Assembly (NCBI GenBank): GCA_029260905.1
Contig: JAJDCH010000006.1
Coordinates: 1 to 60,582, forward strand
Origin: Candidatus Levyibacteriota bacterium
GTDB lineage: Bacteria > Patescibacteriota > Microgenomatia > Levybacterales > UBA12049
Direction: 5' to 3'
Length of the DNA: 60,582 nucleotides
The translations under genes and the position numbers were made by a program. Below, piece after piece: positions 1,794 to 55,689 of the stretch. The first letter of the stretch is position 1, and each line of letters starts with the position of its first letter. Under the pieces are notes generated by a model. It had not been told where the DNA came from and made no database searches. It worked only from the letters and a program-made list of their open reading frames with translations.

Positions 1794-4442
1794 TTAGTGC
1801 ACATGATGAAGAAAAAATTGATTTTTATTATTGTAAGCCTTGAAAATATCGAAAAATCCTGTTACTACAAAAACCGCGCCAAATGCCAAAAGCCAACTCT
1901 CAATCCCAAGAGGCACTGTTTCAAAAACTTTATTAAGAGGTGTGTAGATAATTAGAATTGATGCTAGAACCGAAGTCAAGCTTGCAAAGACTAAATACTT
2001 ATTGACAAAGATGCTACTCCCAAATACCTGATGACGGAAAGAGCGGAATGTATAAGCATTGGCAATCTGCACCAAAATCATACTCAGGAGAACTGTTGTT
2101 CTGGCTGTTTCAGGTGGGAATTTGATTATATTAAAGGAAAGATATGCAACCACAAAGGCTACAATTCCCATAATTGAGCCGTTCAAAATAATAATATTTA
2201 TAAATTCATTAGTCAAAATTTTGGCATTTTTTCTCGGCCTTTCTTTCATAATGTCTTTTGAAGAAGGATTAAATCCAAGAGTGAGCGCAGGGATATTATC
2301 AGTCACAATATTCATAAATAAAATCTGGAGCGCTGTAACAACTGGTGTGTACCAGCCAAGAAAAGGCGCAACAAGCATACCCATAAAAATAATATAAATA
2401 TCAGAAAAATTACACGCCAGCTGATAAGTCACGAACTTACGGATATTGTTAAAAATAGTTCTTCCCTCTTTAATGGCAAGAACAATTGTCGCGAAGTTAT
2501 CGTCTTTTAATGTAATATCCGCAACTGAACGAGATACATCAGTACCATTTATTCCCATAGCTACACCTATGTGTGCCTCCTTGAGAGCTGGCGCGTCATT
2601 TACACCGTCTCCTGTCATAGTCACTATCTCATCATTTTCTTTTAATGCCTTTATAATCCTGAGCTTGTCTTCTGGCTTAACGCGCGCAAAAACTCCTATT
2701 TCATTAACAATTTTTGAAAGCTCCGAATCCGTCATTTCGTCAAGCTCATAACCTGTAACTGTTTTTCCAACAATACCAATTTGACGGGCAATTGCCTCAG
2801 CTGTTTCCTTATTATCTCCTGTTATCATCTTGACCTTTATCCCACTTGCCCTACAAAGCTCAATCGCCTCTGCCACTTCTTCGCGTGGACTGTCCTCCAT
2901 GCCAGCAATTCCAAGAAATGTTAGATCGTCTTCTGTGTAAGATTTGCTTTTATTTTCTTTATAGGCAAAACTCAATGTCCGAAGCGCTTTTGCTGAAAAT
3001 TTCTGATTTGCTGCCACTTGTTCTTTTCTTTTCTTATCAGTAAGTTTCTCGCGTTTACCATTAATAAGAATATGCGTACATTTTGGAAGAACGACTTCAA
3101 TTGCGCCTTTCACATAAAGTAGATTGGTATCTTTTTCTGGATAAAGAACTGACATCATTTTACGCTTGGAATCAAATGGTATCTCCTCAATACGTGACTT
3201 GAGGTAATTTTCCCTGAAAATATCAAGCTTTGCTGCAAGAACCAAAAGAGCGCCCTCAGTTGATGAGCCTATCACTTTATATTCTCCATCCTCTCCTTCT
3301 CTTTCGATATTTGAATCATTACAAATAACTGCTGTTTTTAAAATCATACTCAGGGCATTCTCCCATGCAAGAGAAATCTTTTTTCCATTTCCTGTTATAT
3401 TTCCCTGGATGTCATAACCAACGCCTGAAACGTGATAAGTCTTTCCATCTGCAAAAAGCGTCTCGACTGTCATCTCGCCTTTTGTCAAAGTACCAGTCTT
3501 GTCAGAGCAAATTACTGATGTCTCACCAAGAGTTTCAATAATTGACATCCTATTCACAACAGCATTTTGCTTTGACATGCGGCTCACGCCTGCTGCAAGG
3601 GTGGTTGTCAGAACAACCGGAAATCCTTCAGGAAATGAAGAAACAGCAAGCGCTATGATAATAATAAAAATCCCAACCAGCACATCAGGAGTAATTGCAT
3701 CAGCGCGAAGAAACAAAATAACACCAGTCAAAACTGCGGCAGTCATACTCACTACCACCATATATTTGGAAATGTTATTTATCTTATCCTGAAGTGGCAG
3801 ATGTTTTTCCGCGCCAGATATCATTCCTGCTATTTCTCCAAATTTGGTATTCATCCCTGTATGGAGAACTCTTGCAAAAGCCCGTCCGCTGACCACATAT
3901 GATCCCATAAACAGTAAATTTTCATCCAATAGTTCTTTTTCAAGATCAGTTGCCCTAATCTTTCTGATATCAGAAGACTCCCCTGTGAGAATTGACTCAT
4001 TTACACTTAGACTTGATTCTCTTACCACCACACAATCTGCTGGTATTTTATCACCCGTTCTCAGGACCACTATGTCCCCTGGAACAATCTCGCTTGATGG
4101 AATCTCTTTTTCGCGTCCATCTCTTATCACGCGTGAGACAGGCATAATCAATTTTTTCAAAGCGCTAATTGCCTTCTCCGCCTTATATTCCTGGATAAAC
4201 CCTGTAATCACAACAAGAGCAATAACGATCAATACCACCCAGCCAGTAAAACCTTTATCGATAGCAAAGGATGCAATCGCAGTAAGCGCAAGCAAATAAA
4301 CAACAAAGTTTTTTTTCACTTGCCTGAAGAGGATCTGAAGAGGCGAAACTTTATTCTTCTCCTTGATTTCATTTAGACCAAACTCTTTTAATTTTTCTTT
4401 GGCTTGTATGACTGTCAGTCCATCAAGTATATTTTTGGGCAT
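1794..4442 (-). CDS. Cation-transporting P-type ATPase (type IIA, Ca2+-like)
   Basis: DKTGTLT phosphorylation site, TGES, PEGFP, KGA, TGDGVNDAPAL motifs. Start placed at MPKN (4442) behind a TATCAT -10. Confidence 0.95.
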   Translation of the reverse strand: MPKNILDGLTVIQAKEKLKEFGLNEIKEKNKVSPLQILFRQVKKNFVVYLLALTAIASFAIDKGFTGWVVLIVIALVVITGFIQEYKAEKAISALKKLIMPVSRVIRDGREKEIPSSEIVPGDIVVLRTGDKIPADCVVVRESSLSVNESILTGESSDIRKIRATDLEKELLDENLLFMGSYVVSGRAFARVLHTGMNTKFGEIAGMISGAEKHLPLQDKINNISKYMVVVSMTAAVLTGVILFLRADAITPDVLVGIFIIIIALAVSSFPEGFPVVLTTTLAAGVSRMSKQNAVVNRMSIIETLGETSVICSDKTGTLTKGEMTVETLFADGKTYHVSGVGYDIQGNITGNGKKISLAWENALSMILKTAVICNDSNIEREGEDGEYKVIGSSTEGALLVLAAKLDIFRENYLKSRIEEIPFDSKRKMMSVLYPEKDTNLLYVKGAIEVVLPKCTHILINGKREKLTDKKRKEQVAANQKFSAKALRTLSFAYKENKSKSYTEDDLTFLGIAGMEDSPREEVAEAIELCRASGIKVKMITGDNKETAEAIARQIGIVGKTVTGYELDEMTDSELSKIVNEIGVFARVKPEDKLRIIKALKENDEIVTMTGDGVNDAPALKEAHIGVAMGINGTDVSRSVADITLKDDNFATIVLAIKEGRTIFNNIRKFVTYQLACNFSDIYIIFMGMLVAPFLGWYTPVVTALQILFMNIVTDNIPALTLGFNPSSKDIMKERPRKNAKILTNEFINIIILNGSIMGIVAFVVAYLSFNIIKFPPETARTTVLLSMILVQIANAYTFRSFRHQVFGSSIFVNKYLVFASLTSVLASILIIYTPLNKVFETVPLGIESWLLAFGAVFVVTGFFDIFKAYNNKNQFFLHHVH

Positions 4443-4500: not shown

Positions 4501-4644
4501 ATGTCAGAAGAAACAACCAAAACAGGTCAAGACCTGAGAGATGCAATAGTAGATAAATTCAACACTCCTGAAAAAACCTTTAAAGGTGGTTACTCTATCA
4601 GTCAGCAAATTGCTTATCGGCAAACCAGAGTACAAATTATTTAA
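4501..4644 (+). CDS. Unannotated 47-aa small ORF (MSEETTKTGQDLRDAIVDKFNTPEKTFKGGYSISQQIAYRQTRVQII)
   Basis: Read directly from sequence; extended -10 TG-A-TAAAAT lies 6 nt before the ATG; divergent from the ATPase. Confidence 0.5.
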   Translation: MSEETTKTGQDLRDAIVDKFNTPEKTFKGGYSISQQIAYRQTRVQII

Positions 4645-4900
4645 AAATCTGACTCAGTATTCGATAAATATCTTTTCTATGACCAATGAGCACTATAAAG
4701 ATCTCATTTACCCGCTCGCGGTAAATGATCCTGTAATCACCCACTCGTACCCTATAAATATCTTTATATCCTGAAAGCTTTTCTTTTTTCAATTTCTCAT
4801 CAACAGGGAAAGATCTTATCTTTTTGACAATTGCGATTTGGTGAATTTTGGAAATTTTCTTGAGTGTTTTTTCCGCACGGGGTGAAATTTTCAGCTTCAT
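4637..4900 (-). CDS. relE: RelE/ParE-family toxin
   Basis: 87 aa, basic; KLSGYKDIYRVRVGDYRIIY motif; 4-nt overlap with the upstream antitoxin. Confidence 0.9.
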   Translation of the reverse strand: MKLKISPRAEKTLKKISKIHQIAIVKKIRSFPVDEKLKKEKLSGYKDIYRVRVGDYRIIYRERVNEIFIVLIGHRKDIYRILSQIFK

Positions 4901-5136
4901 AGATTAAGCTCTTTAGCTACATCTTCAAAATCATGACCTTTACTAAAATTTGTATCCTTAATATCCTTGCGGTCTATAAAATCCTCTATATATGAAACAA
5001 GCTTTTCATAAAGCTCACTGCCCACCAAGTATGCCTCGATTTTATTTCTATTCTCAACAGCCAAGGGAAAATCTGCTGCTTCCCTTATAGCTTTTGCAGG
5101 GTTTGTCTTCAATTGTGAAATAGACACTGAACTCAT
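4897..5136 (-). CDS. Phd/YefM-family antitoxin
   Basis: VSISQLKTNPAKAI...PLAVENRNKIEAYLV Phd-like N-terminus; acidic C-terminus; upstream of toxin. Confidence 0.85.
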   Translation of the reverse strand: MSSVSISQLKTNPAKAIREAADFPLAVENRNKIEAYLVGSELYEKLVSYIEDFIDRKDIKDTNFSKGHDFEDVAKELNL

Positions 5137-5307: not shown

Positions 5308-5898
5308 ATGTACACGTGTCCCATGCACCCTGAAATAAAAAGCAGCAAATCAGGAACCTGTCCCAAATGCAACATGATGCTTGTGACAGTCAAAGACCTC
5401 AAAATAGAAAAAGAAGAAAACTCATTCACTCCTTTTTTTATTATTATTGGCTTGATACTTATCACATCACTTGCTATATCTTTTAAAGATTTTCAAGTAT
5501 CCAATTTTGTCTTAAATAGCTTCTTGTCAAATTTCATGGCCGGTTTTTTCATCGTCTTTGCTGGATTTAAACTGCTTGACCTAAAAGGCTTTGCAGATGG
5601 CTACTTCACTTACGATTTACTTGCAAAAAGATGGTATACATATGGATACATCTATCCATTTATCGAGCTTTTCTTTGGGCTTTCTATGATTCTTAATTTT
5701 ATGACTCGCGAAGTACTGATCGCTGAGATAATCGTCATGACTTTTAGTGGATTTGGAGTTTTGATAAAGCTTTTGAAAAAAGAAAAATTCAGCTGCGCGT
5801 GTCTTGGCACCTTTTTCAAACTTCCCCTCACCAAAGTAACTTTGATTGAGGACTTCGGCATGGCCGTCCTCGCCCTTGTTTTATTGTTTAATATATAA
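5308..5898 (+). CDS. Heavy-metal-binding (CPMHP) domain fused to MauE/DoxX-like membrane domain
   Basis: MYTCPMHPEI...GTCPKCNMML; GFADGYFTYDLLA, YPFIEL and CACLG motifs. Confidence 0.8.
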   Translation: MYTCPMHPEIKSSKSGTCPKCNMMLVTVKDLKIEKEENSFTPFFIIIGLILITSLAISFKDFQVSNFVLNSFLSNFMAGFFIVFAGFKLLDLKGFADGYFTYDLLAKRWYTYGYIYPFIELFFGLSMILNFMTREVLIAEIIVMTFSGFGVLIKLLKKEKFSCACLGTFFKLPLTKVTLIEDFGMAVLALVLLFNI

Positions 5899-11482: not shown

Positions 11483-12376
11483 ATGAATAGCAACCAACTA
11501 AAAGATTTAAAACTCAAAGCCAATGAAATTCGTCGTCTTATTATCGAGGCGCTTGATGGCGCCAATCACAACACAGGCTCAGGACATACAGGCGGCCCGC
11601 TTGGCATGGCTGATGTGTTTGCCGCGCTTTATTTCAATTTCATGAAACACGATCCCCAAAATCCTGATGATCCAGATCGCGACAGGCTTCTTCTCTCCAA
11701 TGGTCATATTTGCGCAGTTCTCTACTCAAGCCTTGCTTTATCTGGCTATTTTCCAACTAGTGAGCTAAAAACATTTAGAGGTTTTGAAACACGTCTTCAG
11801 GGGCATCCTCACCGAGGCGTTCTCCCCGGTCTTGAGAACACATCAGGACCACTTGGTGAGGGACTTTCTCAAGCAATTGGCATTGCTCTTGCACGAGACA
11901 TTGATAAAAAGACCTACACTGTTTACTGCGCAACATCTGACGGTGAACACCAGGAGGGAAACATCTGGGAAGCTGTGATGCTTGCAGGCAAATTAAAAAT
12001 CAATAACCTAATTCAAATAATTGACTTTAACAACATCCAGATTGATGGACCGGTTGATAAGACCATGCCGCTTGAGCCTTTCCGCGCAAAATATGAATCA
12101 TTCAATTGGCATGTGATTGATATTGATGGCAATGATATGAAAGAGATAGTTGATGCAATCAGTCAAGCAAAGGAAATAAAAGACAAACCTGTTATCATAA
12201 TTGCGCGTACTATCCCTGGTAAGGGAGTCAGCTTTATGGAGGGTGATTACAGATGGCATGGGATGCCACCTGGCCTCAAAGATGTAAGCGGCGCGCCGCC
12301 AAAAGACGAACAGGTAGCAGTCGCATTTAAAGAGATTGAAGAAGAACGGAAAAAAATTATAATGGGGAAAGCGTGA
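11483..12376 (+). CDS. tktA: Transketolase, N-terminal (TPP-binding) subunit
   Basis: SGHTGGPLG, DRDRLLLSNGH, LQGHP, SGPLGEGLS, SDGEHQEG, NNIQIDG. Confidence 0.95.
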   Translation: MNSNQLKDLKLKANEIRRLIIEALDGANHNTGSGHTGGPLGMADVFAALYFNFMKHDPQNPDDPDRDRLLLSNGHICAVLYSSLALSGYFPTSELKTFRGFETRLQGHPHRGVLPGLENTSGPLGEGLSQAIGIALARDIDKKTYTVYCATSDGEHQEGNIWEAVMLAGKLKINNLIQIIDFNNIQIDGPVDKTMPLEPFRAKYESFNWHVIDIDGNDMKEIVDAISQAKEIKDKPVIIIARTIPGKGVSFMEGDYRWHGMPPGLKDVSGAPPKDEQVAVAFKEIEEERKKIIMGKA

Positions 12377-12782
12377 AGGGTGAAGGGTAAAGATAAAATA
12401 GATGGTAAAATCATATAAAGAACTCATTGTTTGGAAAAAATCAATGGAGATGGTAAGATTTATTTATCAACTAACAGAAAGCTTTCCAAAAGACGAGCTA
12501 TATGGTTTACGGTCTCAGATGGAAAGATCTGCTGTTGCAATCCCAAGCAATATTGCAGAGGGATATTTGAGACGACATCGCAAAGAGTATGTTCAGTTTT
12601 TATCAATATCCCTCAGCTCTGCAGCTGAACTTGAAACACAAATTCTTGTTTGTAAATCATTAAAAAAGTTTAAACATATAGATTTTTCTGAAACAGAATC
12701 ATTACTAAATGAGGTATTAAAAATGTTATTTGTTATGATAAATAAGATGGCTTGACGCTTAACCCTTAACGCTTTACGCTTA
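12368..12782. mobile_element. Four-helix-bundle gene enclosed by inverted heptamer arrays (full element)
   Basis: Left arm AAAGCGT-GAAGGGT-GAAGGGT-AAAG (12368-12392, contains the tktA stop); right arm CTTG-ACGCTTA-ACCCTTA-ACGCTTT-ACGCTT (12751-12782) is its near reverse complement. Mobility is inferred. Confidence 0.65.
12402..12755 (+). CDS. Four-helix-bundle protein (23S rRNA IVP / TIGR02436 family)
   Basis: SYKELIVWKKS, FPKDELYGLRSQMERSAVAIPSNIAEG, SAAELETQ signature. Confidence 0.92.
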   Translation: MVKSYKELIVWKKSMEMVRFIYQLTESFPKDELYGLRSQMERSAVAIPSNIAEGYLRRHRKEYVQFLSISLSSAAELETQILVCKSLKKFKHIDFSETESLLNEVLKMLFVMINKMA

Positions 12783-12785
12783 AAT

Positions 12786-13778
12786 ATGTTAAATCCAAAC
12801 TTAAAACTAAATACAAAATTATTTGACGTAGACGTTGAAAAAAAACCAACCCGCGCAGGCTTTGGCACAGGCCTTCTTGCTCTTGGCAAAAAAGACAAAA
12901 ATGTAGTCGGGCTTTGTGCTGATCTCACAGAGTCAACCCAAATGAACCTTTTTGCTGATGCATTTCCTGAGAGATTTTTCCAAGTCGGTGTTGCTGAGCA
13001 AAATATGGCAGCAGTTGCAGCAGGACTAGGAGTTACTGGCAAAACAGCTTTTATTTCCAGTTATGCTACTTTCTCCCCTGGTAAAAATTGGGAAACAATC
13101 AGAACCACAATTGTTTACAACAAAGCAAATGTCAAAATAGCAGGCCATCATTCAGGAATCATGACAGGTCCTGATGGAGCAACTCACCAAGCAACTGAGG
13201 ATATAGCCATAACACGCTGCTGGCCGGGTATTGAAGTATATGTTCCATGTGATGCAATTGAAGCAGAAAAAGCAACTATTGCGTCTGCTAAAACACAAAA
13301 ACCAGTTTATCTTCGCTACTCAAGAGACAAAACTCCGCTAATCACAACTGCAGATACACCTTTTGAGGTAGGCAAACTACAGGACTTCTGGGTCAGTGAA
13401 AATCCGCAAGTAACTATCTTTGCAACAGGCTATATGCTTTACTATGCATTAGTTGCCGCAAAAGAGCTTGAAGATGAAGGCATAAATACAATAGCTGTAA
13501 ATGTCGCAACCATTAAACCACTTGACTCAAATGAAGTTCTCAAATTTACCAATCAAACAAGCGCTGTTGTAACAGTTGAAGATCATCAAATAACAGGCGG
13601 CATGGGCAGTGCAATTGCTGAATCTCTGGCCAAAACCAATCCCCTGCCGATTGAGTTTGTCGGCATGCAAGACGTATTTGGCGAAACAGGAACACCAGCC
13701 CAACTCTTAAAGAAATACAAAATGAATCCTGAAGCAATCAAAGAAGCTGTAAAAAGAGTGATACGTAGAAAGCGTTAA
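12786..13778 (+). CDS. tktB: Transketolase, C-terminal subunit
   Basis: TRAGFG, ADLTES, GVAEQNM, GPDGATHQ, PVYLR, IKPLD, VEDH, GMGSAIAE. Confidence 0.95.
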   Translation: MLNPNLKLNTKLFDVDVEKKPTRAGFGTGLLALGKKDKNVVGLCADLTESTQMNLFADAFPERFFQVGVAEQNMAAVAAGLGVTGKTAFISSYATFSPGKNWETIRTTIVYNKANVKIAGHHSGIMTGPDGATHQATEDIAITRCWPGIEVYVPCDAIEAEKATIASAKTQKPVYLRYSRDKTPLITTADTPFEVGKLQDFWVSENPQVTIFATGYMLYYALVAAKELEDEGINTIAVNVATIKPLDSNEVLKFTNQTSAVVTVEDHQITGGMGSAIAESLAKTNPLPIEFVGMQDVFGETGTPAQLLKKYKMNPEAIKEAVKRVIRRKR

Positions 13779-13840
13779 GGGTAAAGCGTCAAGGGTGAAG
13801 TTTTTTTCTTTCCCCTTAGCGCTTAGCGCTTTCCCCTTAA
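13769..13840. repeat. Empty inverted heptamer-array hairpin (AAAGCGT/AAGGGT class)
   Basis: AAAGCGT-TAAGGGT-AAAGCGT-CAAGGGT-GAAG, T7 loop, CTTT-CCCCTTA-GCGCTTA-GCGCTTT-CCCCTTA. Confidence 0.85.
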
Positions 13841-17927: not shown

Positions 17928-18278
17928 AAATAACCCAATACTACCAATAACCCAATCAGCAAATCAATGCAGAATACCAGATGTAGAATAATTTGTTTCT
18001 TTACCTTCTTTTCTAACTATTGCATATTTTGCAATAAAATCTTTTCTGCTATCTGTTCCGTCTGCTTCTTGATCGTTTGCTCCCATTGAAGTAGCTGAGC
18101 GTGTTATCTGAGTTATTATAATAATATTCTCAGGAGTCTTTGGAAGTTGTTTTACTAATTTTAAAATCCTTATTATAAATTGATAAATTCTTTCATGAAT
18201 ATCCTGAATCTTTTCTGTGTTTTGCATTGGATTATTGATTAGTAGTATTTGTAGTATTGGTTTATTTGTTTATTTATT
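17928..18278. mobile_element. Inverted octamer arrays enclosing a truncated four-helix-bundle gene
   Basis: Arm 17928-17981 (AATAACCC/AATACTACC/AATCAGCA) and arm 18214-18278 (reverse complement AATAAACA/AATACTAC/AATAATCC). Mobility is inferred. Confidence 0.6.
17964..18227 (-). pseudogene. Four-helix-bundle (IVP family) gene lacking its C-terminal helix
   Basis: DIHERIYQF...LPKTPEN...QITRSATSMGANDQEADG...DFIAKYAIVRKEGKETNY then abruptly STSGILH*; roughly 30 aa shorter than the 117-aa paralogue. Confidence 0.75.
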
Positions 18279-21982: not shown

Positions 21983-22100
21983 TCTAATTTTAATATCTAA
22001 ACACCAAATAAATCCAAAATATAAATATCTAATTTGTTTTGGAATTTGTACTTTTACTATTTGGTATTGTTTAGGATTTAGAATTTAGAGCTTAGGATTT
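21983..22100. repeat. Empty inverted heptamer-array hairpin (TCTAAAT class)
   Basis: AATATCT-AAACACC-AAAT...AAATATCT then GGAATTT...AGGATTT-AGAATTT-AGAGCTT-AGGATTT; overlaps the msrB stop. Confidence 0.75.
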
Positions 22101-30487: not shown

Positions 30488-30595
30488 AATTCTAAACTCT
30501 AAATACTAATATCTAAATCCTAAATAATTTCAAAATTCTAATTTAGAAATCATATTGTTTTGTACTTTTACTTTCGGTCATTTGATATTATTTAA
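30488..30595. repeat. Empty inverted heptamer-array hairpin (TCTAAAT class)
   Basis: AATTCT-AAACTCT-AAATACT-AATATCT-AAATCCT arm and GTACTTT-TACTTTC...GATATTATTT arm between the prs stop and recR start. Confidence 0.75.
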
Positions 30596-32697: not shown

Positions 32698-32780
32698 GTA
32701 ATCAACAAATCATCTAACTCCAAATCAACTAATAATCCACTTAATCAAATTTGTTTATTAGTTGATTTACTACTTCTTGA
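32698..32780. repeat. Empty inverted octamer-array hairpin
   Basis: Perfect 14-bp IR AAATCAACTAATAA (32722-32735) / TTATTAGTTGATTT (32755-32768) inside 8-mer periodic arms. Confidence 0.8.
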
Positions 32781-34641: not shown

Positions 34642-34661
34642 ACTTCTCCTTTCAGTCGAAG

Positions 34662-34763
34662 AATACTACAAATAAACAAATAAGCCAATAAACAAATTTA
34701 TTGGAGATTTTTAATTGAGTTATTGATTGGTAGTATTTGCATATTGGGTTATTGATAGTATTT
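34662..34763. repeat. Empty inverted octamer-array hairpin
   Basis: AATACTACA-AATAAACA-AATAAGCC-AATAAACA versus ATTGAGTT-ATTGATTG-GTAGTATTTG...TAGTATTT. Confidence 0.8.
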
Positions 34764-36880: not shown

Positions 36881-36931
36881 TAATAAACCAATCAACTAAT
36901 TATCCAATGCAATTTGTTTATTAGTTGATTA
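36881..36931. repeat. Empty inverted octamer-array hairpin
   Basis: AATAAACC-AATCAACTAAT ... ATTTGTTT-ATTAGTTGATT. Confidence 0.8.
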
Positions 36932-38610: not shown

Positions 38611-38697
38611 TTGGAATTAGAAATTAAGAATTAGGAAATTACATCTCTGTCTCACATATATTAAAACCGTCGCATTTTCCGCGTTCGCGGGATTTTG

Positions 38698-52854: not shown

Positions 52855-52892
52855 ACACATCTTTTTACAACGATCGTTTCAAAAAGATGTGT
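52855..52892. repeat. 38-bp imperfect palindrome
   Basis: ACACATCTTTTT-ACA-ACGATCGT-TTC-AAAAAGATGTGT. Confidence 0.85.
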
Positions 52893-54142: not shown

Positions 54143-54180
54143 ACACATTTTTTATACACGATCGTGTATAAAAAATGTGT
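54143..54180. repeat. Perfect 38-bp palindrome
   Basis: ACACATTTTTTATACACGATCGTGTATAAAAAATGTGT equals its own reverse complement. Confidence 0.92.
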
Positions 54181-55593: not shown

Positions 55594-55689
55594 AATCAAC
55601 TAATTTCCAATTAACCAATCATCTAATTATAAACCCTCAAAATGTATTGTTTAATTTGTTGATTGGTTTATTAGATGATTTGTTTATTA
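55594..55689. repeat. Empty inverted octamer-array hairpin
   Basis: AATCAACT-AATTTCC-AATTAACC-AATCATCT-AAT versus ATTGTTTA-ATTTGTTG-ATTGGTTT-ATTAGATG-ATTTGTTT-ATT. Confidence 0.85.

Follow-up and report, generated by a model that had tools for sequence, protein, structure and literature searches.

Proteins of the IVP (S23p) family are among the commonest uncharacterised small bacterial proteins and were first found some 30 years ago in intervening sequences (IVS) of 23S rRNA. In the 23S IVS of Coxiella burnetii, two to three tandem heptamers (GACAGAT) stand directly upstream of the IVP open reading frame (ORF), and RNase III cuts the IVS (PMC4990558). IVP genes are also on record inside cas operons, in a study that already reported the R...S...N..EG motif of the family (PMC3936711), and in rRNA insertions of the candidate phyla radiation (CPR). 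The related protein Avd of diversity-generating retroelements (DGRs) assembles into a positively charged pentamer whose ligand is a specific RNA element (bioRxiv 10.1101/2023.10.23.563531). Here, we describe an IVP element in a stretch of 60,582 nt (the window) from Candidatus Levyibacteriota bacterium, contig JAJDCH010000006.1, in which an IVP gene flanked by inverted arrays of tandem heptamers stands where the two halves of a split transketolase meet.

Comparable short tandem repeats are known as the STRR repeats of cyanobacteria, and in the early polycistronic mRNA of phage T7 intercistronic RNase III hairpins separate the cistrons while expression is kept. Geobacter metallireducens carries 24, 21, and 8 pairs of tandem octa-, nona-, and heptanucleotide 'global regulator sites' at operon junctions such as nifD/nifK and proB/proA, which were read as integration host factor (IHF) or HU sites (Aklujkar et al. 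2009, PMC2700814), and two insertion sequences, ISGme8 (IS110-family) and ISGme9 (IS481-family), lie at a fixed distance from its paired tandem-octanucleotide sites (PMC2700814, Table S4). Xanthomonas has 70 to 75 convergent pairs of GGGAATC arrays (PMC4692102), and Beggiatoaceae have TAACTGA arrays (PMC4679880). A search of the full-text literature, with subscription journals and database family notes outside its scope, turned up no report in which periodic inverted arms at operon junctions of mRNAs are associated with IVP genes, and the junction class of IVP cassettes is apparently undescribed so far.

The window is low-GC (39%) CPR DNA close to Levybacteria, and the best match to its tktN was found in a metagenome-assembled genome (MAG) of Levyibacteriota (83% identity). 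The two transketolase halves, tktN and tktC, and the IVP ORF between them are all encoded on the plus strand (Table 1). The spacers on the two sides of the IVP ORF, 25 nt at the 5' end and 30 nt at the 3' end, consist of tandem heptamers almost throughout, so that the AAGSGTN units upstream and their reverse complements downstream form inverted arrays around the gene, just as a preliminary description of the locus had it. Since the arms fill the spacers, the stop codon of the upstream gene falls in the 5' arm and the start codon of the downstream gene comes after the 3' arm. The tktN stop indeed lies inside the 5' arm, which had also been noted before, the first 3'-arm unit shares bases with the IVP stop, and the tktC start (ATG, 12786) follows the end of that arm after 4 nt, with no Shine-Dalgarno sequence. 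The right arm had been said to end 3 nt before the start; its closeness to the ATG holds, and the figure of 3 is obtained only when the next A is counted in. Stop codons recur in the 5' arm at 7-nt spacing (TGA at 12374, TGA at 12381, and TAA at 12388), one per frame, and all three reading frames are thereby closed. Stops in all frames are also seen in arms of other clades (AATCGTR, GACAGGT, AGGTAAT) and are absent from GGGTCNA and GGCAAAG arms; the closing of all frames is a possible, though not universal, rationale for the 7-nt period.

Table 1. Positions of the IVP elements, their arms, the transketolase genes, and ORF-less hairpins in the window.
Feature	Position	Strand	Description
tktN	11483-12376	+	Transketolase_N; stop TGA 12374-12376
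5' arm	12368-12395	+	four tandem heptamers AAAGCGT GAAGGGT GAAGGGT AAAGATA (AAGSGTN)
IVP ORF	12402-12755	+	117 aa; PF05635 E 6e-36; stop 12753-12755
3' arm	12754-12781	+	GACGCTT AACCCTT AACGCTT TACGCTT, reverse complement of 5'-arm units
tktC	12786-13778	+	Transket_pyr and Transketolase_C; stop 13776-13778
ORF-less hairpin, AAGSGTN class	13770-13839	+	-31.2 kcal/mol, z = -2.8
Second IVP element	17928-18267	-	different, AT-rich repeat class
Second IVP ORF	17964-18227	-	87 aa; PF05635 E 2e-12; scores 47.6 and 57.3 bits
Second-element arms	17928-17949 and 18246-18267	-	AT-rich 7- to 9-nt units CCAATAN / ATTGGTN
ORF-less hairpin, AT-rich repeats	32722-32768	-	between co-directional genes; z = -3.7
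ORF-less hairpin, AT-rich repeats, weaker	~34655-34745	-	between co-directional genes; z = -2.0
ORF-less hairpin, AT-rich repeats	36890-36930	-	between co-directional genes; z = -3.5
ORF-less hairpin, AT-rich repeats	55606-55688	-	between co-directional genes; z = -3.2

The two arms are 83% complementary over 24 nt (73% if extended to 40 nt). In the minimum-free-energy RNA fold of positions 12340-12810 they are paired and the ORF forms the loop (-109.7 kcal/mol; z = -4.0), a fold equalled by none of 100 shuffles and in agreement with the earlier proposal of a stem with the gene as its loop. Nine matches to the two-unit pattern AAGSGTNAAGSGT were counted in the window (0.73 expected), a number reached in 0 of 100 shuffles, and eight of the nine belong to the IVP element or to the hairpin directly after tktC. 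Neither at the IVP element nor at the post-tktC hairpin did we find a site resembling an intrinsic terminator (a G+C-rich stem with a U tract behind it), and no T run follows the arms. Rfam recognised no family, rRNA included, in the window; the IVP element is positioned between tktN and tktC and not within an rRNA helix. PADLOC defence models gave no match. A promoter-like sequence, TTGAAG-16-TATAAT (10/12), is present on the plus strand at 12336-12363, directly 5' of the left arm. An own promoter for the IVP gene was considered and rejected, promoter-like matches being not enriched (7 versus 6.2 expected).

More than 100 related genes in about 12 phyla are framed in the same manner. Relatives of the window's first IVP were collected at 39 loci (flank statistics on 38) in CPR, Bacteroidota, Desulfobacterota, Nitrospirota, Acidobacteriota, Chloroflexota, Omnitrophota, Verrucomicrobiota, Planctomycetota, and Melainabacteria, among others, and relatives of a second IVP of the window, described below, at 80 Microgenomates loci (arm statistics on 75). 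Almost all intact copies of the first set are preceded by tandem repeats and followed by the reverse complement of these, built from clade-specific units (AAGSGTN, GGGTATC, GGGTCNA, AATCGTR, GACAGGT, GGCAAAG, GGGGTGT, and a few 8- or 9-mers); the best period was 7 in about 32 of the 38 upstream flanks, and in about 33 of 38 cases no shuffle reached the inverted-repeat score, broken ORFs making up most of the exceptions. In the second set, significant inverted arms of AT-rich 7- to 9-nt units were found at 59 of 75 loci, so periodic inverted arms at IVP genes elsewhere, which the preliminary description had anticipated, are borne out in both sets. The energies of the arm duplexes lie between -17 and -106 kcal/mol, most being at least as strong as -30, and the spacers around the IVP genes, about 25 to 65 nt, are barely longer than the arms. 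Neighbouring genes are mostly co-directional, upstream in 31/37 and downstream in 34/36 cases of the first set, and in 58/71 and 49/72, respectively, of the second. The G-rich arm stands upstream in the first clade set and the A/C-rich arm in the second class; a rule that the G-rich arm is always upstream was therefore discarded, and arm polarity is class-specific rather than universal. No IVP relatives were found in viral contigs. The class consists of an IVP ORF enclosed by inverted arms of three to six tandem 7- to 9-nt units, co-directional with its neighbours, at operon junctions.

It might be argued that simple-sequence heptamer arrays, arisen by chance or slippage, came to be inverted around a small gene by accident, and long heptamer simple-sequence repeats are in fact widespread without IVP, as at 119 AAGSGTN loci (see also PMC4679880, PMC4692102). 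That explanation is refuted because the architecture recurs across genomes, the inverted-repeat score beating all shuffles at most independent loci of both sets; the excess of AAGSGTNAAGSGT matches and their clustering at two hairpins, together with the z-score of the fold, also speak against it.

The window protein is a clear member of its family, scoring 123.3 bits with PF05635 (cutoff 33.8) and 114.7 bits with TIGR02436 (cutoff 24), and matching XCC0516 (PDB 2GSC) with an E value of 2e-22. Its AlphaFold2 model (pLDDT 94.3) has four helices, at residues 5-25, 36-57, 60-86, and 96-116. In a Foldseek search with this model, 2GSC (TM score 0.83, rmsd 1.7) and 2RLD (BT_0352; TM score 0.75), both deposited with five chains, came before DGR Avd (TM score 0.77-0.79). 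Seven residues, Q39, R42, N50, E53, G54, R57, and E76, are invariant in 19 diverse members, and the conserved R...S...N..EG motif is present. Both the family assignment and the relationship to Avd given previously are thus upheld. Profile searches recognised no catalytic domain, the only matches being to PF05635 and bAvd, and gave no match to an HUH/Y1 (IS200-like) or other transposase.

The Avd-like fold and weak matches to bAvd (PF22296, 26.2 bits) and to the Avd equivalog (NF033474, 29 bits) raise the question of whether the gene is an orphan Avd, left behind by a DGR that lost its reverse transcriptase and its template and variable repeats (TR/VR). Both scores are under the curated cutoffs (40 and 80 bits), and the neighbours are the transketolase halves, a DUF4147/MOFRL (glycerate-kinase-like) gene, and an FAD oxidase, with no reverse transcriptase among them. 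The repeats near the gene are the arms and a few two-copy families of 10 to 19 nt, likely due to chance, none of them TR/VR-like, and the architecture recurs at more than 100 loci without reference to DGR parts. We regard a DGR origin of this kind as effectively refuted.

Comparison of junctions pointed to a single unit. When six CPR elements were aligned, conservation extended over the arms and the ORF and ended at the outer edges of the arms, while the host junctions differed (tktN/tktC in the window, glycerate-kinase-like gene/tktN at locus L001, and others), and no remnant of a loop was left between arm and ORF. At L001, the place of an 83%-identical IVP is one junction further upstream, where it separates the glycerate-kinase-like gene from tktN, and the tktN/tktC and tktC/FAD-oxidase junctions are without heptamer hairpins. 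The closest relative, L040, whose tktN is the 83%-identical one, has a plain tktN/tktC spacer of 38 nt and a plain spacer of 45 nt after tktC; the post-tktC hairpin of the window is missing at the same junction in both L040 and L001. Among 80 tkt loci, an IVP gene was seen only on the L001 contig, at that different junction, and the length of the tktN/tktC junction ranged from an overlap to 1.9 kb. ORF-less periodic hairpins of other motifs occupy this junction in the distant genomes L048, L062, L070, L101, and L103. The junction therefore occurs in the three states that had been predicted, full in the window, with an ORF-less hairpin at these five loci, and absent in L040 and many others. Judging from these comparisons, positions 12368-12781 are one discrete cassette, with arms plus ORF as the unit of homology, that was probably acquired at the tktN/tktC junction of a Levybacteria-like CPR genome.

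Two other kinds of insert at this junction were noted. Large tktN/tktC spacers (280 to 1900 nt) in other CPR genomes were considered as IVP-like cassettes and rejected; they hold unrelated membrane-protein genes and no inverted arms. A different, GC-rich structured insert is conserved in L041 (3395-3509) and L044, with the sequence GCGGGTGGCG.GCGGAGAGGGACTC...GGAGC.CGACAGGACCCG; the insert in L072 is similar, and these look like another kind of intergenic element.

The window contains further members of this repertoire. The second IVP element has arms of 22 nt that are 91% complementary, and its protein keeps residues 1-80 of about 120, the C-terminal 40 aa (codons 81-120) being deleted; a full-length orthologue is found at the same pfkB/fba site in another Levyibacteriota genome (L240). 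In the post-tktC hairpin, the left arm (13770-13800) holds the tktC stop, the loop is about 9 nt, and the right arm (13810-13839) ends 6 nt before the next ATG (13846). This is the only ORF-less hairpin of the window with the heptamer of the IVP element; about five others are of other AT-rich 7- to 8-nt classes, with z below -3 in three of them. Arrays of ATTTAGN or GAATTAG type at 30488-30540 (minus strand), 22060-22100, and 38611-38640 abut start or stop codons and are unpaired, without a hairpin; they resemble the Beggiatoaceae TAACTGA arrays, which stop 1 nt before start codons (PMC4679880). The autocorrelation of the intergenic DNA of the window showed merely a modest bump at periods 7 to 8. 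The preliminary description had counted eleven or more related hairpins as support for a genome-wide system, which holds in part only: the hairpins differ in repeat class, and several of the items are unpaired arrays. Locus L170, from the same MAG as L004, has two ORF-less hairpins of the AAGSGTN class (about 3040-3135 and 5490-5590) that exactly fill co-directional junctions between genes taken for those of ATP synthase on visual inspection rather than by a domain search, each running from a stop codon through an arm, a short loop, and a second arm to a start codon; the same genome also has an IVP element of this class (class A).

Selection acts on both parts of the element. The IVP gene is under strong purifying selection, with a ratio of nonsynonymous to synonymous divergence (dN/dS) of 0.04 to 0.12 and a proportion of synonymous differences (pS) of 0.68 to 0.84, i.e., with saturated synonymous sites. 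The hexamer cores of the arms are invariant among the six CPR copies at the same divergence, which means that the arm sequence, and not pairing alone, is constrained within a clade. Between clades, arms are complementary in nearly all copies although their sequence varies with the protein clade, in keeping with the earlier suggestion of lineage-specific arms that keep their pairing. Distances between proteins and between arm k-mers were correlated (Spearman r of 0.79 for all elements and 0.39 for the second class; permutation p = 0.001), and paralogous elements of the same genome have different arms. Such covariation is consistent with arms and protein being a cognate pair.

We favour, with moderate confidence, the reading that the window element is a cassette of a very widespread class and the operon-junction counterpart of the 23S rRNA IVS, with the following mechanism. 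The promoterless IVP gene would be transcribed by read-through, and in the polycistronic transcript the arms would pair into a duplex of about 24 to 30 bp; stems of 24 to 30 bp are long enough for RNase III. RNase III might then cut the stem and excise the element as it does in rRNA; alternatively, the stem might insulate the element, and ribosomes terminating in the 5' arm would open it for the next cistron. Either way the flanking cistrons would stay expressed, and the insertion would be close to neutral for both neighbours. From the example of Avd, an RNA-binding pentamer, we infer that IVP would recognise its own tandem repeats and bind its own arms, one repeat per IVP subunit being a natural guess. 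The ORF-less hairpins would be decayed or non-autonomous relatives, with the truncated copy at 17964-18227 as an intermediate.

Several observations weigh against this reading. Simple linkage would produce the covariation of arms and protein as well. No mobility mechanism emerged, with neither a catalytic motif nor a target-site duplication found; the termini are inverted, and no duplication was discernible in a full-versus-empty comparison available at 83% protein identity only. None of 130 AAGSGTN arrays in 119 public loci chosen for such arrays had an adjacent IVP gene; by our estimate some 140 matches to the AAGSGTN pattern are expected by chance in 596 Gb, and this array-to-gene test therefore says little about cognate arrays. 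In G. metallireducens, paired sites are occupied by IS110-family insertion sequences and not by IVP (PMC2700814), and periodic-arm hairpins may be insertion targets of unrelated mobile elements. The window itself has 2 IVP genes, fewer than its ORF-less hairpins (about 6) or its arrays (about 5). Nor did pairing in the sense transcript leave an RNA-specific signature. Had such pairing been selected, transition mismatches in the arms should be biased to G·U; G·U- versus A·C-type mismatches numbered 27 versus 31 in the first set and 48 versus 35 in the second, with no excess, and sense duplexes were only marginally stabler than antisense ones (-45.5 versus -42.9 kcal/mol, p = 0.05).

As periodic hairpins without an ORF outnumber IVP genes, the hairpins may have come first, with the gene as their occupant. 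They would then be an independent feature of junctions, either a punctuation used by the host (for processing, stability, or coupling) or self-propagating repeats akin to MITEs (miniature inverted-repeat transposable elements) or REPs (repetitive extragenic palindromes), and IVP would be a secondary occupant that lands in, or survives only in, their loops, with arms that are not cognate. The ORF-less hairpins of other motifs at the tktN/tktC junction of five loci and the class-A ones filling the putative ATP-synthase junctions of L170 would fit such an order of events, as would the junction sites of G. metallireducens, often occupied by ISGme8/9 (PMC2700814), and the convergent array pairs of Xanthomonas (PMC4692102). 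Against it, arms and ORF are conserved jointly across different junctions with no loop remnant between them, the arm motif goes with the IVP clade and differs between paralogues of one genome, and L040 is without a hairpin at either junction, so that nothing points to an empty hairpin having pre-existed at the junctions of the window. On these grounds we find a hairpin-first origin doubtful.

The result of the mismatch test would also suit a foldback transposon acting at the DNA level, in which the arms are terminal inverted repeats, composed of subrepeats and used as recombination or transposition sites by a trans-acting enzyme of the host or of an element, IVP is a DNA-binding accessory, and the RNA stem is incidental. 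The conservation of arm sequence and not only of pairing, the copies in different contexts with several per genome, and the existence of a decayed copy (17964-18227) agree with it. Set against these are the absence of a recognised catalytic domain from IVP and of a visible target-site duplication, and the RNA-level action of the rRNA relatives (PMC4990558). Strand-specific features point the same way. The elements share the direction of host transcription, and in 9 of 9 scorable cases the ORF-less hairpins keep a polarity on the mRNA that is specific to their class, the G-rich arm being 5' in 3/3 class-A hairpins (window 13770 and the two in L170) and the A/C-rich arm in 6/6 AT-rich ones; this indicates a strand-specific, transcript-level constraint. 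Purine-purine versus pyrimidine-pyrimidine mismatches on the sense strand numbered 82 versus 40 in the first clade set and 102 versus 116, without bias, in the second class. Overall, a foldback transposon seems to us improbable.

The cassette reading could be extended to a two-part selfish system of IVP and periodic hairpins, similar to REP-associated tyrosine transposases (RAYTs) with their REP doublets (REPINs) and lacking a canonical transposase, which would occur across bacteria and in which a pentameric IVP reads its own tandem repeats sequence-specifically, at about one unit per subunit, and drives both forms. We put this forward tentatively and think it rather unlikely. If true, IVP would drive the maintenance, processing, or spread of the cassette and of the ORF-less hairpins, in mRNAs and rRNAs alike, and rRNA intervening sequences would be one of the settings in which a general intervening element of operon junctions occurs.

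For the long-orphan IVP family, the arms are concrete ligand candidates, as RNA or as DNA, and the process to test is concrete too, namely coupling at operon junctions or processing of the RNase III type. Reports of heptamer repeats from the Coxiella IVS, Xanthomonas, Geobacter, Beggiatoaceae, and cyanobacteria could be linked through them. In annotation, arms and ORF are best treated as a single feature, the arms providing the stop codons of the upstream genes and replacing the ribosome-binding region of the downstream ones.

Two other features of the window may be mentioned. A type II toxin-antitoxin pair lies on the minus strand at 4637-5136, in a stretch without an ORF of at least 100 aa, where a ParE-family toxin (4637-4900; PF05016, E 6e-10) overlaps a Phd/YefM antitoxin (4897-5136; PF02604, E 8e-8). 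Two related zero-loop palindromes with 19-nt arms, at 52855-52892 (ACACATCTTTTTACAACGA and TCGTTTCAAAAAGATGTGT, 89% complementary) and 54143-54180 (ACACATTTTTTATACACGA and TCGTGTATAAAAAATGTGT, 100% complementary), are intergenic in a run of minus-strand genes and not heptamer-periodic; they could represent an operator or a further family of repeats.

Among the described systems, the likeness of T7-type hairpins to the IVP element is at most functional, since they hold no gene and are neither periodic nor mobile. Avd shares a homologous fold and weak hidden Markov model matches with IVP, whose locus differs in having neither a reverse transcriptase nor TR/VR. The REP/REPIN-RAYT systems are similar in architecture only, with a gene between inverted hairpin-forming repeats and more numerous ORF-less copies at junctions. 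RAYT is an HUH/Y1 transposase, whereas IVP is a four-helix bundle without a known catalytic motif, and REPs are single palindromes, whereas IVP arms are tandem arrays of 7- to 9-nt units with several arm classes per genome. The repeats of Geobacter, Xanthomonas, and Beggiatoaceae are alike in their 3 to 5 tandem units of 7 to 9 nt, in opposite-strand pairs at operon junctions with array ends beside start codons; in those papers, however, the repeats were not tied to IVP and were read as IHF/HU sites, G-quadruplexes, or translational signals.

The 23S rRNA IVS that carries an IVP ORF is an already known instance of the class. In Leptospira and Coxiella, as in the window, a member of the IVP family is found inside a long stem of inverted flanks, and the IVS share with the junction elements a sporadic distribution, ORF-containing and ORF-less forms, and decay of the ORF. 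Excision by RNase III was shown for the Coxiella IVS. The IVS lie in helix 25 or 45 of the rRNA, whereas the host RNA of the window element is that of a protein-coding operon; unlike those of the IVS, its arms are fully periodic on both sides, and the stop and start codons that flank it must be kept.

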